Notes under the pieces: model-generated
What the model was told of the DNA's origin: nothing
What the model saw: only the letters and a program-made list of their open reading frames with translations
The model's database searches: none
Translations under genes and position numbers: made by a program
From: a virus
Lineage: Duplodnaviria > Heunggongvirae > Uroviricota > Caudoviricetes
Direction: 5' to 3' (one strand)
Length of the DNA: 64,000 bases
IMG/VR virus record: IMGVR_UViG_2617271087_000004
Part shown: piece by piece, positions 1,152-62,437 of the stretch
Numbering within the stretch: the stretch's first letter is position 1
Layout: each line of letters starts with the position of its first letter

Positions 1152-1609
1152 TATGCTGCTCTCACAATATAATTGAAGGCAATGTTACGTGGGCGGGTTT
1201 CATTCCCCCCAGATAACTCCGTTCTGTATTGACTGGTAAATTTACCATTAATCGCTCCTTCTTGGACGGCGTTATCTGTCGACAACAGGCTATCCCCCCC
1301 TCTGTCATTTGGCACCAATACCGTGTTATCCCACGCGTCCCATGACCGAATATTATGATAATGACTTCCTGTTAACCACCCCTGTATGCTTAAGATGACC
1401 CTTCCCGCATCCACACCTCGCCCATCATCCCAACCACGGATAAACTCACCGCGTAAATCAGGTAATTTTAACGTTGGGTAAACCTTTGCCAGATTTGGGT
1501 ACTTTTCAGAAGAAAATGCTGCGCCATTGCATTTCAGCCACCCCGTTGGAGGTGTGGCTGATGGCCACGGAACGGGCACGCCAACGGGCAGTGCAGAGCC
1601 TTCCCCCAA
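1151..1609 (-). CDS. tail fibre C-terminal variable cassette (alternative)
   Basis: Same conserved N- and C-terminal boxes as 37-534; divergent central region. Confidence 0.75.
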   Translation of the reverse strand: MGEGSALPVGVPVPWPSATPPTGWLKCNGAAFSSEKYPNLAKVYPTLKLPDLRGEFIRGWDDGRGVDAGRVILSIQGWLTGSHYHNIRSWDAWDNTVLVPNDRGGDSLLSTDNAVQEGAINGKFTSQYRTELSGGNETRPRNIAFNYIVRAA

Positions 1610-2194: not shown

Positions 2195-2767
2195 ATGCAA
2201 ATTGGCTACATTCGTGTGTCAACAAATGACCAAAACACAGATTTACAAAGAAATGCACTGAACTGCGCAGGATGTGAACTGATTTTTGAAGATAAAATAA
2301 GCGGAACAAAGTCAGCCAGACCAGGCTTGAAAAAGCTGCTCAGAACGTTATCAGAAGGAGATACGCTGGTTGTCTGGAAGCTGGATAGGCTTGGCAGAAG
2401 TATGAAACACCTTATCACGCTTATAGAGGAGTTGCGGGAAAAAGGTGTTAATTTCCGTAGTCTGACAGACAGTATTGACACATCAACACCCATGGGGCGT
2501 TTCTTTTTTCACGTCATGGGGGCTTTAGCAGAAATGGAACGTGAATTAATTGTTGAGAGAACACTGGCCGGACTGGCAGCTGCACGCGAACAGGGACGCA
2601 TTGGCGGACGTCGCCCGAAGTTGACAAAAGAACAACATGAGCAAATAGCGAGGTTGATCGAAAATGGCTACAGCAGGAAACAGTTGGCAATTATTTACGA
2701 TATCGGTGTATCGACGATTTATCGTTATCATCCTGTAGAGAAGCGCCAAACTCAATCTGAGCTGTAA
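2195..2767 (+). CDS. cin: serine DNA invertase, Cin/Min/Pin/Gin/Hin family
   Basis: MQIGYIRVSTNDQNTDLQ...VVWKLDRLGRSMKHL...GRFFFHVMGALAEMERELI..C-terminal HTH; catalytic Ser in YIRVST; RBS AGAGG 9 nt upstream of the ATG at 2195 (ORF track starts at TTG 2186). Confidence 0.9.
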   Translation: MQIGYIRVSTNDQNTDLQRNALNCAGCELIFEDKISGTKSARPGLKKLLRTLSEGDTLVVWKLDRLGRSMKHLITLIEELREKGVNFRSLTDSIDTSTPMGRFFFHVMGALAEMERELIVERTLAGLAAAREQGRIGGRRPKLTKEQHEQIARLIENGYSRKQLAIIYDIGVSTIYRYHPVEKRQTQSEL

Positions 2768-57234: not shown

Positions 57235-57501
57235 TCCACCAGGCGTGCTGAATGTCAGATATAATCGGCATACTCAAATCACTCCTAACGATATGAGTCA
57301 TCACCAGAAAATCAGGATTAATGCGCCGGACTCTTCCCGGCTGTCACACCGAATCGCCAGGATGGTGAATCCCTTTACCCGAGAAACAACAAACGGTGGC
57401 TTGCACATTCCGGCTACCTGGTTCGTTGCCTGAGCTAGGGGCAAGGTTCCCCCCTTTTAACGTCACCAGACCGCTAACGACGCATGTGCCAGACGCCGTG
57501 T

Positions 57502-57577
57502 TACAACCAAATATGGTGGCCCCTACCGGACTTGAACCGGTGACCGTGCGATTATGAGTCGCCAGCTCTAACCACTG
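57502..57577 (-). tRNA. tRNA with CAU anticodon (Met or lysidine-modified Ile2 type)
   Basis: GGCCCTTTAGCTCAGTGGTTAGAGCTGGCGACTCATAATCGCACGGTCACCGGTTCAAGTCCGGTAGGGGCCACCA folds as cloverleaf, anticodon loop CTCATAA, encoded CCA. Confidence 0.8.
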
Positions 57578-57616
57578 AGCTAAAGGGCCGGATTACTGCC
57601 AATTTTGCTTACGCTT

Positions 57617-58444
57617 TTATTTCACCGGAACAAACGGAACAGCGGTATTACTGGTCATATACTGCGGTAATGTACCGTTCCATTTGTTGATCGCTTCCAA
57701 CTCCATAACACCGGGGTTCTGGCGCAGAGCTTCACCACGTAAACGAATGGCATCAGCTTCGGCCTGGGCTTTTGTGCGAATAGCATCAGCCTGTCCGGCA
57801 GCTTCCGCGCGCAGCATGTTGGCCTCTGCTTCACGTTGTTTGACCTCTTGCTCGCGTTGCAGGGTTTTTTGGTTTGCCGTGACTTTGGCGTTAATACTGT
57901 CAATAACTGTTGGCGGGTATTCTGGCTTACCTACATAAGAGAGGCTCATCACCTGAATGCCGATTGGCGTCATTTCTTCCTGAATGTCTTTAAGGGCTGC
58001 ATCAAGCAATTCAGATTTGCCACCGTCGATAAATTTGTCGGTGGTCATTTTGCTGGCTAACCGGTTCAGAGCATCTGCAACCTTCTGGCGTAGATCGGTA
58101 TCAGTAATATCATCTACACCTTTGCGATAGGTCTGAAATACCGTTGTGACTTTTGCTGGATCAACCTTGTAGGCTACGCCGATGTGGTAACCAATGGTTG
58201 TTCCGTCGCTCATCTGGAAGCTGAACGGCTCATCGTATGTCTTCATTTGCTTAAAGGTCGGGAAGATATAAACTTCAGTATTCAAGCCTGTCCAGTAGCG
58301 ACCAACGCCAACTACTTCACCGATACCTTTATCATCCCCCAGCTTATTTACTTTGATCCCTACGTTACCTGGCTCTACCCGATCGCATCCGGTCAGACAT
58401 AAAGAACCCAAAATAATCGCTGCACTAATCAACGTTTTTTTCAT
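57617..58444 (-). CDS. plp: SPFH/band-7-like lipoprotein (Plp-like)
   Basis: Signal peptide with lipobox LTGC; SPFH-like central region; Ala-rich coiled-coil tail. Confidence 0.65.
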   Translation of the reverse strand: MKKTLISAAIILGSLCLTGCDRVEPGNVGIKVNKLGDDKGIGEVVGVGRYWTGLNTEVYIFPTFKQMKTYDEPFSFQMSDGTTIGYHIGVAYKVDPAKVTTVFQTYRKGVDDITDTDLRQKVADALNRLASKMTTDKFIDGGKSELLDAALKDIQEEMTPIGIQVMSLSYVGKPEYPPTVIDSINAKVTANQKTLQREQEVKQREAEANMLRAEAAGQADAIRTKAQAEADAIRLRGEALRQNPGVMELEAINKWNGTLPQYMTSNTAVPFVPVK

Positions 58445-59589
58445 TAATTAATTTCCTGGTTTTTTCACGAAAAAAGACTACTGCGAAAGCCGGGTAAATG
58501 AGCGCGAGAAGGACTCCCAACAATACAAGTATTGTGCTGTTAGATGAGATCATATTTGGCAAAAGCCAAACATACAGAACCAGTGACACAATCAAACAGA
58601 GGACGGCATAAATATATAACCGCACCCATAGCGTTCGACATTTGTTCGGATTGTTCTGCATCCTCTCACTCCATTATTTAACGAATAAAAAAGCTGCGGT
58701 GCCGGGTGCCTCCCGGTGTCCTTTGGCTGGTTATCCACCGTGGACGGGGAAACAAGGAGAAATGAATGGACTGATATAACCATTTCCCCGCGTGCGCTTA
58801 GCCGCATTCACCGCAACGGAAAGAGCATTCTTGGTGGACCTGTAGATTGGGATATGAACCCGTTACAGGAGAATGCTCTTACCTGTTACGTGCTCCGTTT
58901 CGTGGAGCTAACGGCGGGTGATCGGGCCGCACCAAGCTGGACTTATTTCAGCGTTATGCTCATGCCAGAGAATCAAACTGTGATGGTCGGTGCTGAACTC
59001 CGACACAGGGTTGTAGCAAGCCCCGCAAAGCGCGCACTACTGTAGTTGCGGCACATCAGCCTGTGCATTCACCACAATGTTGAGAACACTGGTTGTCACG
59101 CTGCAACGCAACATTTATTCGTAGATTGGGATATGACCCCGTTACGCCAGTGTTCTCAACGTTGTAGTGCCGGTTACGGTTCCGGCCAGGCCTCTTCCTC
59201 AACGGGGTGTTCTCCATACGGACTACCGTTTATTGGTCGTTCCTGCGGTTTATGTTGTGAAGCCAGATGCTTATCTTCTGGTTGCTTCAAAGAGCTGCAC
59301 TTCATCACAACGGTAAGAGCACTCGATGCATTTAAGCCAAGCCCCATAAGGGAGAATGCCCTTACCTGTTGTGTTGTGATGACCGGTGCTGATCTCCGGC
59401 TTGCGGTTATTTCAGACTCTCACGGGCGTTTAATTGCCCCGCCGAACAGCTCTTTTCCGCAATAGCTGCAATGTCTTTCGCGCATCAGCCTGCGCATTCA
59501 TCACAACGGTAAGGGTACTTCGTAGGGATTCGAACCCTCTGCCAAGCTCGGCGATCTCCGACGTCGCAAAATACCCTTACCTGTTGTGC

Positions 59590-59665
59590 TGGTGCCGATT
59601 AACGGACTCGAACCGCTGACATCCTGCTTACAAGGCAGGCGCTCTACCAACTGAGCTAAACCGGC
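59590..59665 (-). tRNA. tRNA-Thr (anticodon UGU)
   Basis: GCCGGTTTAGCTCAGTTGGTAGAGCGCCTGCCTTGTAAGCAGGATGTCAGCGGTTCGAGTCCGTTAATCGGCACCA. Confidence 0.85.
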
Positions 59666-59667
59666 AT

Positions 59668-59743
59668 TGGCGATGGTGGATGGATTTGAACCATCGACCC
59701 GTTGATTAACAGTCAACCGCTCTAACCGCTGAGCTACACCATC
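59668..59743 (-). tRNA. tRNA-Asn (anticodon GUU)
   Basis: GATGGTGTAGCTCAGCGGTTAGAGCGGTTGACTGTTAATCAACGGGTCGATGGTTCAAATCCATCCACCATCGCCA. Confidence 0.85.
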
Positions 59744-60400
59744 ACTTGCCGGGTACGTCTCCGGCGAGGGCTTCCACCTCCGTATGCTTTTCGGCGCACC
59801 GCGCCCTGGCTGCAATTCGGTAACAGGGGATGCATAACCCTGGCTTCCAGCGTGATTAGCGCTTTCAGCATGACGGGATATACCCGTAAATTCGTGGAAC
59901 TGTACCCAAAGTGCTGTTAAGCACCGCTGTTACGCTGAAAAGAAGACGCAACAGGAAAGGACGCTGACCAACAGATGGCCCCTTCTCGTTCATCTGGTTA
60001 ATCACACCAGCGCCCTTACCTGTTGTGCCTCCCCGTTCCCTAATACACAGACGGGGACACTCTGCGGTCGATTTTTTGACGGGGGACGACTCATACCCCG
60101 TGGCGTCTGGCTTCTTAGGCCGCTACCATCATCAGATCATCGTTTGCATTTACTTTAATGGTCAGTTTCTAAACCGCCGCAAAGTCGCTAACCATGACGA
60201 AAACCCTGAAAAAAACGCCCACCCGAAGATGGGCAAACTGGAAGCTCGTAACGCACTTCGGTGTTGCCACTTAGGCGTATGGTCAACCTGGCAACTCGGC
60301 GTCATGAGGGGGAAGGAGTCACTACCCCGCCATACTTGCCGCCGCGCCTGTCGCGGCTAACAGCTAAATCGCTCTATAAATCACGATTCATTGAGGCGAT

Positions 60401-60428
60401 ATTACACTAATAAATTTATTAGAGCAAT
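60401..60428. promoter_or_regulatory. overlapping inverted pair of C1 operator-like sites
   Basis: ATTACACTAATAAATTT (60401-60417, 15/17) overlapping AAATTTATTAGAGCAAT (60412-60428, perfect reverse complement of consensus). Confidence 0.7.
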
Positions 60429-62437
60429 ATTGCTATAACGTCATGAGCAACACCTCGAGTGTCCCCCTTACAAGACACAGAACGTCTGGCAAAAAGAGGT
60501 TCCACTCTGAAGCCACTGTCCTGATAAAGTTCTCTGATGTTTGGCGCGCCACTGTTAGTAATGAGAACCTTTGCACCTCGGCGATGAGCATCCGTCAACA
60601 GAGACGCCAGGCGTTTTTGCTCTTCAAACTTAAAGTCATGACCGGAATAGTTCGTGAATCCCTCTGTATTTGGGAGCGGTTCATACGGCGGATCGCAAAA
60701 GATGACATCTCCTTCTCCGGCAGCTTCAATCACCGCAGCAAAATCACCACATACAAACTCAGAACGCCCTTCCGCACCAAGGAAGGCTTCCATCTCCTGC
60801 AATGGGAAATACGGAGTTTTATACTTCCCATAACCGACATTGAACTCACCGGCTTGGTTGTAACGCGTCAATCCGTTAAAACAATGTCGGTTCAGGAACA
60901 AAAACGCCGCTGCGCGATGTAAATCATCATAGACTTGTTTGTTAAACGCATTCCGTACTGCCAGGTATCCTTCCTGCGTGTTGTAGTCCTGGAAGAAACG
61001 ATGTGCCAGAGTGATAAGTGAATGCGCCTCGCGTTGCAGAGTCTTGTAAAAGTTAATCAGGTCAGCATTCACATCATTTAGCAGATTTTCCTGGTATCCG
61101 GCATTCATGAAGACAGCTCCGCCACCAACGAAAGGCTCAATCAGGCGCTTCCCTTCTGGCAAATAGCGAAAGATTTGTTCCAGAACACCAAATTTTCCAC
61201 CAGCCCATTTGAATATGGACCGTTCGAATTCTGCCGCTGGTTTAACTTTTCGCTCTTTTGTTTCACTCCCTTCCTTCTGCCGACATGCAGCCTTGGCAAT
61301 CCGATCGCCAATCCAGCGCATTACTGGTATCGCCATACTATTGCCGATCGCTTTGTAACGCGGTCCGTCAGCTGCAAGCATCGCGGCCTCTTCTTCGCTC
61401 AAATCAGGATAGTTTTTGCGAAGGTATGCCAGTTCATCTGAAGAAACTTTTTTACGCTTTTCCGTAGGGATCAATGTATGTCCATCAGGAAAACCTTGCA
61501 GCCTTTCACATTCGACAGGGATAAGACGGCGCATTCTACCGTCGACGAGCAATACAATTGGTGCTTCATGGTTACATGTCAAAGTTGGTGCCGAATTATC
61601 GGTTTTTATCTCAGCCCCTCCTTGCCCATGTGCCATGGCAACTATGTTTGTATCATCGCAAGATCTGATAGCGATGTTTGAAGTATATCTGGTAGTTTCC
61701 TTCCCCTCGCCTCTGCTCGGCGCAATATTCCGGCGCACGCCTTCGAACTCAAAAAGTACCGTTGCGGGATCGAGGTCTGTTCGAGCACTTGCGACAACAA
61801 ACACGCGTCGGCGTCGTTGTGCCACTCCGAAGTATTGGGCATCAAGGATTCTCCAGGCCACCTTTCGCTGCGGTCCATAAATACAACCACACTGCGGCCA
61901 CTTTGGAGCATGGCAACCGGTTTTGCCATCCCACCGCCAGAACGCGTTACTTTTTCCTGATTCAGGTCGATCACCTGGTTCAAATGGCGCATCTTCTCCA
62001 GCCAATCCGGCAAGGAAACATCCGAAGGCGTTATCTGCCGATGACAGGACTCCTGGGACATTTTCCCAGACGATAACTGTCGGTTTGAGGAAGGACTCAG
62101 ACCGTTTGTCGTCAATTGCATTTGCAAGCTCCACATACTTCAAAGTTAGCGCGCCGCGTTCATCATCAAGCCCACCACGTAAGCCCGCGATACTGAATGC
62201 CTGACAAGGCGTACCCCCGACGAGCACATCAGGGGATTCGATTTCCCCAGCCAGGACTTTTTTGGCAAGTTTTGTCATGTCGCCAAGGTTGGCGACATGG
62301 GGCCAGCGGTGCGCAAGAACGGCAGATGGAAAAGGCTCGATTTCAGCAAACCACGCCGGACGCATACCCAACGGTTCCCAGGCAATACTCGCGGCTTCAA
62401 TTCCACTGCAAACAGATCCATAGCACAGCTCTTTCAC
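60419..62437 (-). CDS. dmt: bifunctional DNA methyltransferase: N-terminal C5-cytosine MTase domain fused to C-terminal Dam-like N6-adenine MTase domain
   Basis: [12 protein letters not shown] (PCQ motif) and VWENVPGV (ENV motif) in N-terminal half; WAGGK and CDPPYEPL (DPPY) in C-terminal half. Confidence 0.85.

Follow-up and report, generated by a model that had tools for sequence, protein, structure and literature searches.

What are the repeats that crowd around the transfer RNA (tRNA) genes of P1-like phage-plasmids, and in which molecule, DNA, RNA or protein, do they act? The question is raised by a 64,000-nucleotide (nt) stretch of viral DNA (record IMGVR_UViG_2617271087_000004), the whole of which is called the window here. 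By its sequence the window is a P1-like phage-plasmid: the stretch compared with relatives, 58650–60420, is 98.6–98.8% identical to the P1-like phage-plasmids vB_EcoM-813R1 and RCS47 and about 98% identical, with gaps, to P1. An earlier note on this DNA had listed direct and inverted repeats and a tRNA-like fragment near three tRNA genes, and had offered processing signals, small RNA (sRNA) genes or decayed tRNA genes as explanations. The first two of these point in the right direction. The repeats are accounted for by hairpins, whose arms (in one case the interior) they form, and by the conserved ends of closed RNA modules. There are five such hairpins, U0 to U4, of a type referred to as H. 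All are on the minus strand, which is that of the tRNAs, where they alternate with tRNA-Asn, tRNA-Thr and four closed multi-stem modules, S1 to S4. The reading favoured below is that they are hairpins at which host RNase III would divide a precursor of stable RNAs.

The 15-mer CCCTTACCTGTTGTG is present in three exact copies (59359, 59574 and 60013), one direct copy with three mismatches (58876) and one inverted copy, also with three mismatches (59947–59961). These five matches within three mismatches compare with an expectation of 1.1 ± 0.9, and 0 of 100 shuffles reached five. The four direct copies and one inverted copy counted earlier are real, but the inverted ones were under-counted, as every direct copy has a partner 50–70 nt away (repeat families D1 and D4; pairs I1, I2 and I7). 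The partners escape a mismatch search because a 1-nt bulge shifts their register. All copies of the 15-mer are one arm of a 19–28 base pair (bp) hairpin on the minus strand. The 25-bp direct repeat (58842–58866 and 59121–59145) is confirmed, at 96% identity (family D6), and is the paralogous interior of U3 and U4. The 18-bp inverted repeat (59075–59092/59147–59164) is also real; it extends to 23 nt with 91% complementarity (59070–59092/59147–59169; pair I1) and is the stem of U3. What remained of the repeats noted earlier (family D2) proved to be the conserved ends of S modules. Three points go beyond that note: what it listed as direct repeats are halves of inverted ones, the family occurs widely beyond P1, and natural deletions have their breakpoints in the repeats.

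With z-scores computed against dinucleotide shuffles, the five hairpins fold at −34 to −49 kcal/mol with z of −4.2 to −6.9. A covariance model of the H hairpin, R1, finds only these five copies in the window and scores each higher on the minus strand (bits are given below as minus versus plus). U0, from 60034 to 59941 (−48.8 kcal/mol, z −5.4; 46.7 versus 38.0 bits), holds the rightmost 15-mer (60013–60027) and its inverted partner (59947–59961). The 'tRNA-like fragment' is U1, from 59588 to 59502 (−42.7 kcal/mol, z −4.75; 62.8 versus 34.7 bits), in whose interior a T-arm-like hairpin, AGGGUUCGAAUCCCU, leads directly into the 3′ strand of the long stem. U2 extends from 59373 to 59306 (−34.5 kcal/mol, z −4.4; 66.6 versus 35.1 bits). 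U3, from 59169 to 59070, has a divergent stem (−49.2 kcal/mol, z −6.9; 45.6 versus 29.8 bits; I1, D6) and the second 25-bp copy as its interior, while the first copy is the interior of U4, from 58890 to 58812 (−37.4 kcal/mol, z −4.2; 70.6 versus 26.8 bits; I2, D6). The hairpins have a common layout, with CACAAC/GUUGUG conserved at the base of the stem, one bulged A and an interior that varies. The stem is mostly Watson-Crick with one bulge or one mismatch, and its 19–28 bp reach the approximately 20 bp, or two turns of duplex, that mark an E. coli RNase III substrate.

That the structure is kept is evident from the family. Among 21 aligned members, pairing holds in 97% of stem cells, and both sides have changed in 10 of 19 pairs. 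None of 500 shuffles reached any of the five covariation measures, and sliding the alignment by 1–3 columns left 36–54% pairing. Read on the tRNA strand, 45 distinct stems contain 747 Watson-Crick, 61 G·U and 21 A·C pairs. Because G·U outnumbers A·C there by 61 to 21, selection for the structure is on the RNA of the tRNA strand. Covariation is free over the inner 13 bp; the outer CACAAC/GUUGUG and the bulged A hardly vary. On what is essentially one stem there are at least 14 unrelated interiors. R1 finds many further members in relatives, some of them 53-nt forms with no cargo, and it is the stem that is the core of the element.

The exact-arm pattern is present in more than 120 viral contigs among the matches listed (two of the matches, L065 and L112, are chance ones within coding sequence). 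Judged by neighbouring genes, the host contigs are P1-like, SSU5-like (about 110 kb), lambdoid or like Klebsiella siphophage IME207. Where H lies with respect to tRNA ends is precise. In the window the CCA of tRNA-Thr (UGU; 59590–59665, minus strand) ends at 59590, 1 nt before the first base pair of U1, and in many P1-like and SSU5-like loci the H stem begins 1–2 nt past this CCA. In a lambdoid contig (L123) the H stem ends exactly at +1 of a tRNA-Arg, after which comes a DicF-like RNA. At other loci a different structured RNA ends, with its terminal hairpin, ahead of H, and either an S module or a tRNA comes after. A scan of whole genomes, one per species (596 Gb), with the exact-arm pattern gave 34 matches, of which one, in an Escherichia contig, has paired copies; since 34 is about the chance number with 20 specified bases, the scan says little beyond a narrow host range. 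The H family has no model in Rfam 15 and no description was found in the searchable literature, nor did a literature search find RNA data for this region of P1. At gathering thresholds Rfam recognises nothing in the window but the three tRNAs, and nothing at 13 related loci but tRNAs and IsrK. Matches of the hairpins at E ≤ 10 are to animal and plant microRNA precursor models only, which reflects generic long hairpins; other matches at this threshold, to YrlA and transfer-messenger RNA, are weak or overlap the true tRNAs, and all of these were rejected.

A second, unrelated long hairpin (stem CUUAAUAUCCAGC/GCUGGAUAUUAAG, with GGGGUAUGUAUGGGUUACGGGG in its interior) is found in Klebsiella siphophage contigs: IME207 (L008, about 2440–2500, minus strand), L037 and L091. 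It lies between an S module and the tRNAs, the same kind of slot that H has elsewhere, and this slot may accept more than one hairpin family.

The S modules are the other recurring component, and tRNAs fill the same kind of slot as they do. The two ends of a module pair (GUUGUGRUG with CAYCACAAC), a conserved hairpin, GCRCAGGCUGAUGYGC, stands at the start and another hairpin at the end. In 15 S modules the closing helix, of 8 bp, is kept with compensatory changes. S1, from 59507 to 59373 on the minus strand (as are all four), has the closing stem GUUGUGAUGA...UCAUCACAAC, the 5′ hairpin GCGCAGGCUGAUGCGC and the 3′ hairpin GCCGGAGAUCAGCACCGG. S2, from 59311 to 59172, starts with a short widely conserved piece (59254–59311, also in Klebsiella phage-plasmids), after which come about 80 nt that finish with the hairpin GGCCGGAACCGUAACCGGC immediately ahead of U3. 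S3, from 59078 to 58979, has ends as in S1 with a different interior. A 16-nt stretch of S2 (59282–59297, CAGCUCUUUGAAGCAA, minus strand) is 81% complementary to one of S1 (59447–59462, UUGCGGAAAAGAGCUG); this could reflect long-range pairing between neighbouring modules, or chance.

S4, from 58817 to 58687, is the last non-coding module before the first open reading frame (ORF) of the operon. It is closed by UGCGGUG...CACCGCA, which is followed by a U run, and its fold has a z of −3.4. It aligns to the Rfam STnc100 model (RF02076) over model positions 31–147 of 206 with 37.8 bits (E 3.5e-6), short of the gathering score, which is 47. Both the cmscan alignment and the minimum free energy fold show the STnc100 architecture, a long-range closing helix with a terminal hairpin before its 3′ strand, and we take the similarity to be real but distant. 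S1 and S3 go undetected by the same model. Both STnc100 and PasD are sRNAs of prophages, the latter associated with Hfq (bioRxiv 10.64898/2026.05.13.724894).

S1 is by no means confined to P1-like plasmids. With 97–98% identity it is found in lambdoid and Stx phages, where it lies in the PL leader immediately downstream of cI, and in Klebsiella siphophage IME207, where tRNAs are its neighbours (L007, L008 and L009). Where examined it is without non-coding RNA annotation, and in mEp460 two hypothetical-protein ORFs are drawn over it. (In mEp460, S1 is followed by a DicF-like RNA with a terminator.) Pieces of the 306-bp U1-S1-U2 stretch are present in 1243 of 5426 complete E. coli genomes, at 911 chromosomal places, and among the matches listed no annotation lies beneath the chromosomal ones.

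Where the array would be transcribed from can be read from the GenBank annotation of P1, from which the gene layout is taken. In that record the C1-controlled promoter Pban, with its operator Op72, is at the start of dmt and directed leftward, which is the minus strand of the window. From it follow, in transcript order, a 'dicF-like region', trnA (Asn), trnT (Thr), the upl/plp stretch (on the opposite strand), tciABC, trnI and ban. This layout places the array in the untranslated leader of the ban operon. Transferred through the alignment of the window with P1 (locus L001, 4004–4033), Pban and the bivalent C1 operator Op72 lie at 60401–60428 on the minus strand. The three tRNAs of the earlier note, all called by both ARAGORN and Rfam on that strand, are tRNA-Asn (GUU; 59668–59743), tRNA-Thr and tRNA-CAU (57514–57589). 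The tciA-tciB-tciC cassette of P1 is replaced in the window, as it is in RCS47, by an ORF for a hydrophobic protein of 78 amino acids and one for an SPFH/Band-7 lipoprotein of 275 (57617–58661, minus strand); in some records the latter is labelled 'putative serine protease'. Relatives have additional tRNAs within the array: tRNA-Tyr (GUA), between Asn and Thr, in Ro157c2YLVW, and tRNA-Ser (UGA), flanked by an S module and another H unit, in P7 and D6 (extra tRNAs are at L003 2453–2539, L004 2138–2224 and L005, P7, 1638–1724). The tRNA-Ser of P7 is left unannotated in the P7 record.

The 'dicF-like region' is the name given in the P1 annotation to part of a leader segment (60216–60365, minus strand). 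This segment is homologous, at about 80%, to one upstream of DicF in the Qin prophage of K-12, and not to DicF itself. The DicF model (RF00039) and the DicF core (UUUGGCGGUAUCAGUUU) have no match in 58500–60450 at Rfam E ≤ 10; window and Qin are homologous upstream of DicF and then diverge. In the Qin dicBF region (locus L130, E. coli K-12 NC_000913.3 1647000–1651500), the counterpart of window 60365 to 60260, about 80% identical, lies just downstream of a long hairpin into which the Qin RNA folds. This hairpin (L130 2172–2260, plus strand) is a member of H: with the filters off, R1 gives it 32.3 bits in the sense direction against 10.5 in the antisense, though with default filters it is missed. 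The K-12 dicF-dicB spacer (L130 2452–2590, plus strand) is an S4-type module nearly identical to the one before terB/tciA in P7 (L005, about 1400–1530, minus strand). In both operons, K-12 dicBF and that of P7, the S4-type module directly precedes the first protein gene.

A preprint that cites Faubladier et al. 1990 reports that a 190-nt species of DicF depends on RNase III and that primer extension located its 5′ end (bioRxiv 10.1101/2023.04.14.536235). A count of 190 nt backwards from where DicF is annotated to end (L130 2435) arrives at about 2246, inside the 3′ arm of the Qin hairpin, CCGUGCG^CUUCCGGUUGUGG (2239–2258). The H hairpins are read as RNase III processing hairpins because this member of the family coincides with the published RNase III cut. 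The position of the cut, obtained by coordinate arithmetic, is approximate, and is the only experimental anchor of the RNase III reading; by analogy with it, we infer that RNase III cleaves H in P1 also.

The favoured reading, to which we give a probability of about 0.58, is that the ban-operon leader is a polycistronic precursor of stable RNAs, expressed from the C1-repressed Pban, in which the H hairpins serve as RNase III processing, or punctuation, sites. Transcription from Pban would yield a minus-strand precursor, and host RNase III would cut the H stems to split it into units. A tRNA or S RNA upstream of a cut would retain a short 3′ trailer, to be trimmed by exonucleases to the CCA or to the terminal hairpin. 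The RNA downstream would retain a short 5′ extension containing GUUGUG. Once freed, this GUUGUG could pair with the CACAAC at the 3′ end, completing the closing helix of an S module; at a tRNA, RNase P would instead remove the extension. Modular recombination would be a side effect of the repetition of the arms.

Several points weigh against this. The Qin cut is placed by subtracting a size from a northern blot from an annotated 3′ end and may be several nt off. A strong intrinsic terminator at 60235–60216, which ends the leader segment about 170 nt after Pban, sits between the promoter and the hairpin array. RNase III requires no specific sequence, and so the near-invariance of the outer 6 bp and the bulged A is not explained by the RNase III model alone. 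Furthermore, some interiors are themselves conserved with compensatory change (L008 compared with L041), which hints at a function of their own.

That last point bears on the alternative that fares best, though it is still rather unlikely: that the hairpins are products, the stem holding diverse interiors of 30–70 nt as stable regulator or decoy RNAs which processing does no more than release. The T-arm mimic of U1, for instance, could bind tRNA-directed enzymes or defence nucleases. In its favour, at least 14 unrelated interiors sit on a common stem, the interior class of L008 and L041 keeps its inner helix through a compensatory change of A-U to G-C, the perfect T-loop of U1 is continuous with the stem, and an H unit in L114 appears to be in a stand-alone transcript with its own terminator. 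However, the cargo-less 53-nt members exist, the interiors are without common architecture, and a common variant of U1 breaks the predicted inner hairpin. Nor was an antisense target of at least 14 nt found for hairpins or S modules in a search confined to the 64-kb window, where complementary 12–13-mers are at chance level.

A wider form of this idea, which must be thought doubtful, takes H and S together as a cassette system. Some specific factor, and not RNase III alone, would recognise the invariant CACAAC/GUUGUG base with its bulged A, and the helix would present and release a diversifying set of interior RNAs. The arms would allow unrelated temperate phages to swap cassettes of tRNAs, sRNAs or decoys. 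The interiors, among them the T-arm mimic that lies beside tRNA-Thr and tRNA-Asn, might have a part in conflict between phage and host, say against defence nucleases directed at tRNAs.

Exchange at the repeats does occur. Deletions were mapped by aligning the window to five relatives. P1, D6 and SJ46 lack 59324–59496, with an overlap of 22–23 nt at the 3′ arms of U2 and U1; P7 lacks 59377–59569, with the overlap at 5′ arms; and SJ46 lacks 58867–59120, between the two 25-bp interior repeats. In relatives one interior is joined to differing downstream modules, and vice versa. As deletion breakpoints and module joins fall there, the repeats are junctions of natural module loss and exchange; being repeated, the arms act as recombination points at which modules are shuffled or deleted between phages. 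Recombination between neighbouring copies explains the presence/absence differences at the locus. Could this be what the repeats are for, as recombination linkers or as the terminal inverted repeats of a miniature inverted-repeat transposable element used for exchanging tRNA and sRNA cassettes, with the RNA hairpin incidental? All module-level deletions among the P1 relatives do break in repeats, and the joining of one interior to different downstream modules, and the reverse, likewise speaks for it. But a linker has no need of an inverted repeat. The compensatory changes that keep pairing while the sequence drifts, the three-to-one excess of G·U over A·C on one strand and the equal variability of both arms all count against this DNA-level alternative, which appears improbable. 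Copies of a miniature transposon have a common interior, unlike those of H with their unrelated ones, and a miniature inverted-repeat element was rejected as a candidate for that reason.

Protection of the 1.7-kb untranslated transcript from premature termination, by NusB/NusE acting on boxA-like motifs or by leaving no free RNA for Rho, is a considerably poorer prospect. Such motifs are present, UGCUCUUAC and UGCUCUUUC in the 3′ arm and GCAGCUCUUUGAAGC in S2; the commonest 3′ arm has GCUCUUAC, as does the boxA of lambda nutR, and U4 has UGCUCUUU, as does that of rrn. The leader is long, untranslated and densely structured, and ban is downstream of two terminators. A boxA signal would be a conserved single-stranded GCUCUU(U)A core, however, and GCTCTT[AT] is kept in only 17 of 43 distinct 3′ arms, where it is no more constrained than the partner arm (summed entropy 12.6 for the 5′ arm against 12.1 for the 3′) and is buried in a stable duplex. 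In several relatives the S2 motif is altered to GATCTTAG or GCTCCTAG. On these grounds the boxA reading is not supported.

The opposite strand of the array carries two annotated ORFs, upl (58854–59045, plus strand) and plp (59046–59465, plus strand), the latter a putative lipoprotein in P1 and RCS47. That they are real protein genes, with the repeats as coding repeats, has in its favour that both frames are open in the window and that they are annotated in these two records, and is scarcely credible otherwise. Substitutions were counted by codon position over 88–137 alignments to relatives. The distributions are flat, 7/9/4 for upl and 19/24/31 for plp, with 25–31% of changes synonymous, and the frames contain three frame-breaking indels and two changes to stop. 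In control genes third-position changes predominate (84 of 94 in the SPFH gene, 151 of 243 in dmt and 74 of 109 in ban). Pfam has no family for either ORF, a search of both strands of 57400–60500 gave no sigma-70-like site, and the P7 and D6 records have no upl or plp annotated. In P1, plp runs antisense into trnT, and its 3′ part differs from that in the window because of the 173-bp deletion between repeat arms. Both were non-essential in a CRISPR interference screen (PMC10695390). From the pattern of substitutions upl and plp are probably not genes, as the earlier note had supposed of the two plus-strand ORFs.

Descent of the units from tRNA genes is hardly tenable: the likeness seen earlier in U1 is correct as to GGTTCGAATCC on a long stem, on the minus strand of 59502–59588, at the place of an acceptor stem, and relatives do carry extra tRNAs (Tyr, Ser) in the array, but U1 has no ARAGORN call and no Rfam tRNA (RF00005) match at E ≤ 10, comparison with 73 distinct phage tRNAs brings out no resemblance beyond the 11-nt T-loop consensus, the 'acceptor' is the stem of the whole hairpin family, and the other four units lack a T-loop in that position. 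(The best local score, 23, which comes from the 11 nt of GGTTCGAATCC and a few further bases, compares with a shuffled maximum of 18.8 ± 2.5, ranging up to 30.)

P1 is a reference phage, and its annotated upl and plp appear to be artefacts over a structured-RNA array on the other strand. H and S1 are unannotated though they are spread over P1-like, SSU5-like, lambdoid/Stx and Klebsiella phages. Recognition of the H and S modules links the P1 ban leader to early operons of the dicBF type and points to precise candidate sites at which RNase III would act as phage tRNAs, and sRNAs like STnc100 and PasD, mature, while recombination at the repeats explains the module-by-module variation of the locus among P1-like plasmids.

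Processing hairpins of this general kind are already known. In rRNA operons and in the T7 early transcript a single precursor contains several RNAs that are stable or function separately, and the long helices that lie between them (the rRNA processing stems and the T7 RNase III sites) are substrates of the host enzyme; tRNAs adjoin these helices in the rrn case. The rrn helix, however, encloses the product (16S or 23S), whereas that of H encloses a short variable interior and sits between products, and the base of the H stem, in contrast to the rrn and T7 helices, is conserved in sequence with a fixed bulged A. The phage T4 tRNA cluster is likewise transcribed as a polycistronic precursor, from which host nucleases free tRNAs as well as two small stable RNAs, species 1 and species 2. 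It is similar as a phage precursor of both kinds of RNA and different in having no sequence relation to the P1 array, and to our knowledge no repeated family of punctuating hairpins is known in it. The Correia elements of Neisseria and the ERIC elements are miniature inverted-repeat elements which RNase III cuts when they are transcribed. They too are units of about 70–150 bp with inverted repeats of roughly 20 bp that form RNA hairpins and exist in many copies, but H copies do not have common interiors and are confined to phage non-coding arrays beside tRNA and sRNA modules. With STnc100 and PasD the P1-type modules have in common that they are prophage-borne and that S4 aligns, including its closing helix and terminal hairpin, S1, S3 and S4 having common ends. 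They differ in that S4 is below the curated 47 bits and in being internal to an operon leader, not stand-alone genes near Q or stx.

The closest counterpart is the RNase III site of Qin dicBF (Faubladier et al. 1990; Ragunathan et al. 2023 preprint), so that one member of H coincides with a site known for long. In the literature consulted it is presented as a cleavage position and not as a member of a hairpin family. What is new, therefore, is not a principle but the H hairpin family as an RNA motif, and with it the re-annotation of the locus. By covariance model the hairpins of Qin and of P1 belong to one family, and both lie in an early phage operon under repressor control, from which small RNAs are obtained by processing in Qin and, on the reading favoured here, in P1; but where Qin has one hairpin and is without tRNAs, the P1-type leader has five, with tRNAs and S modules set between them.

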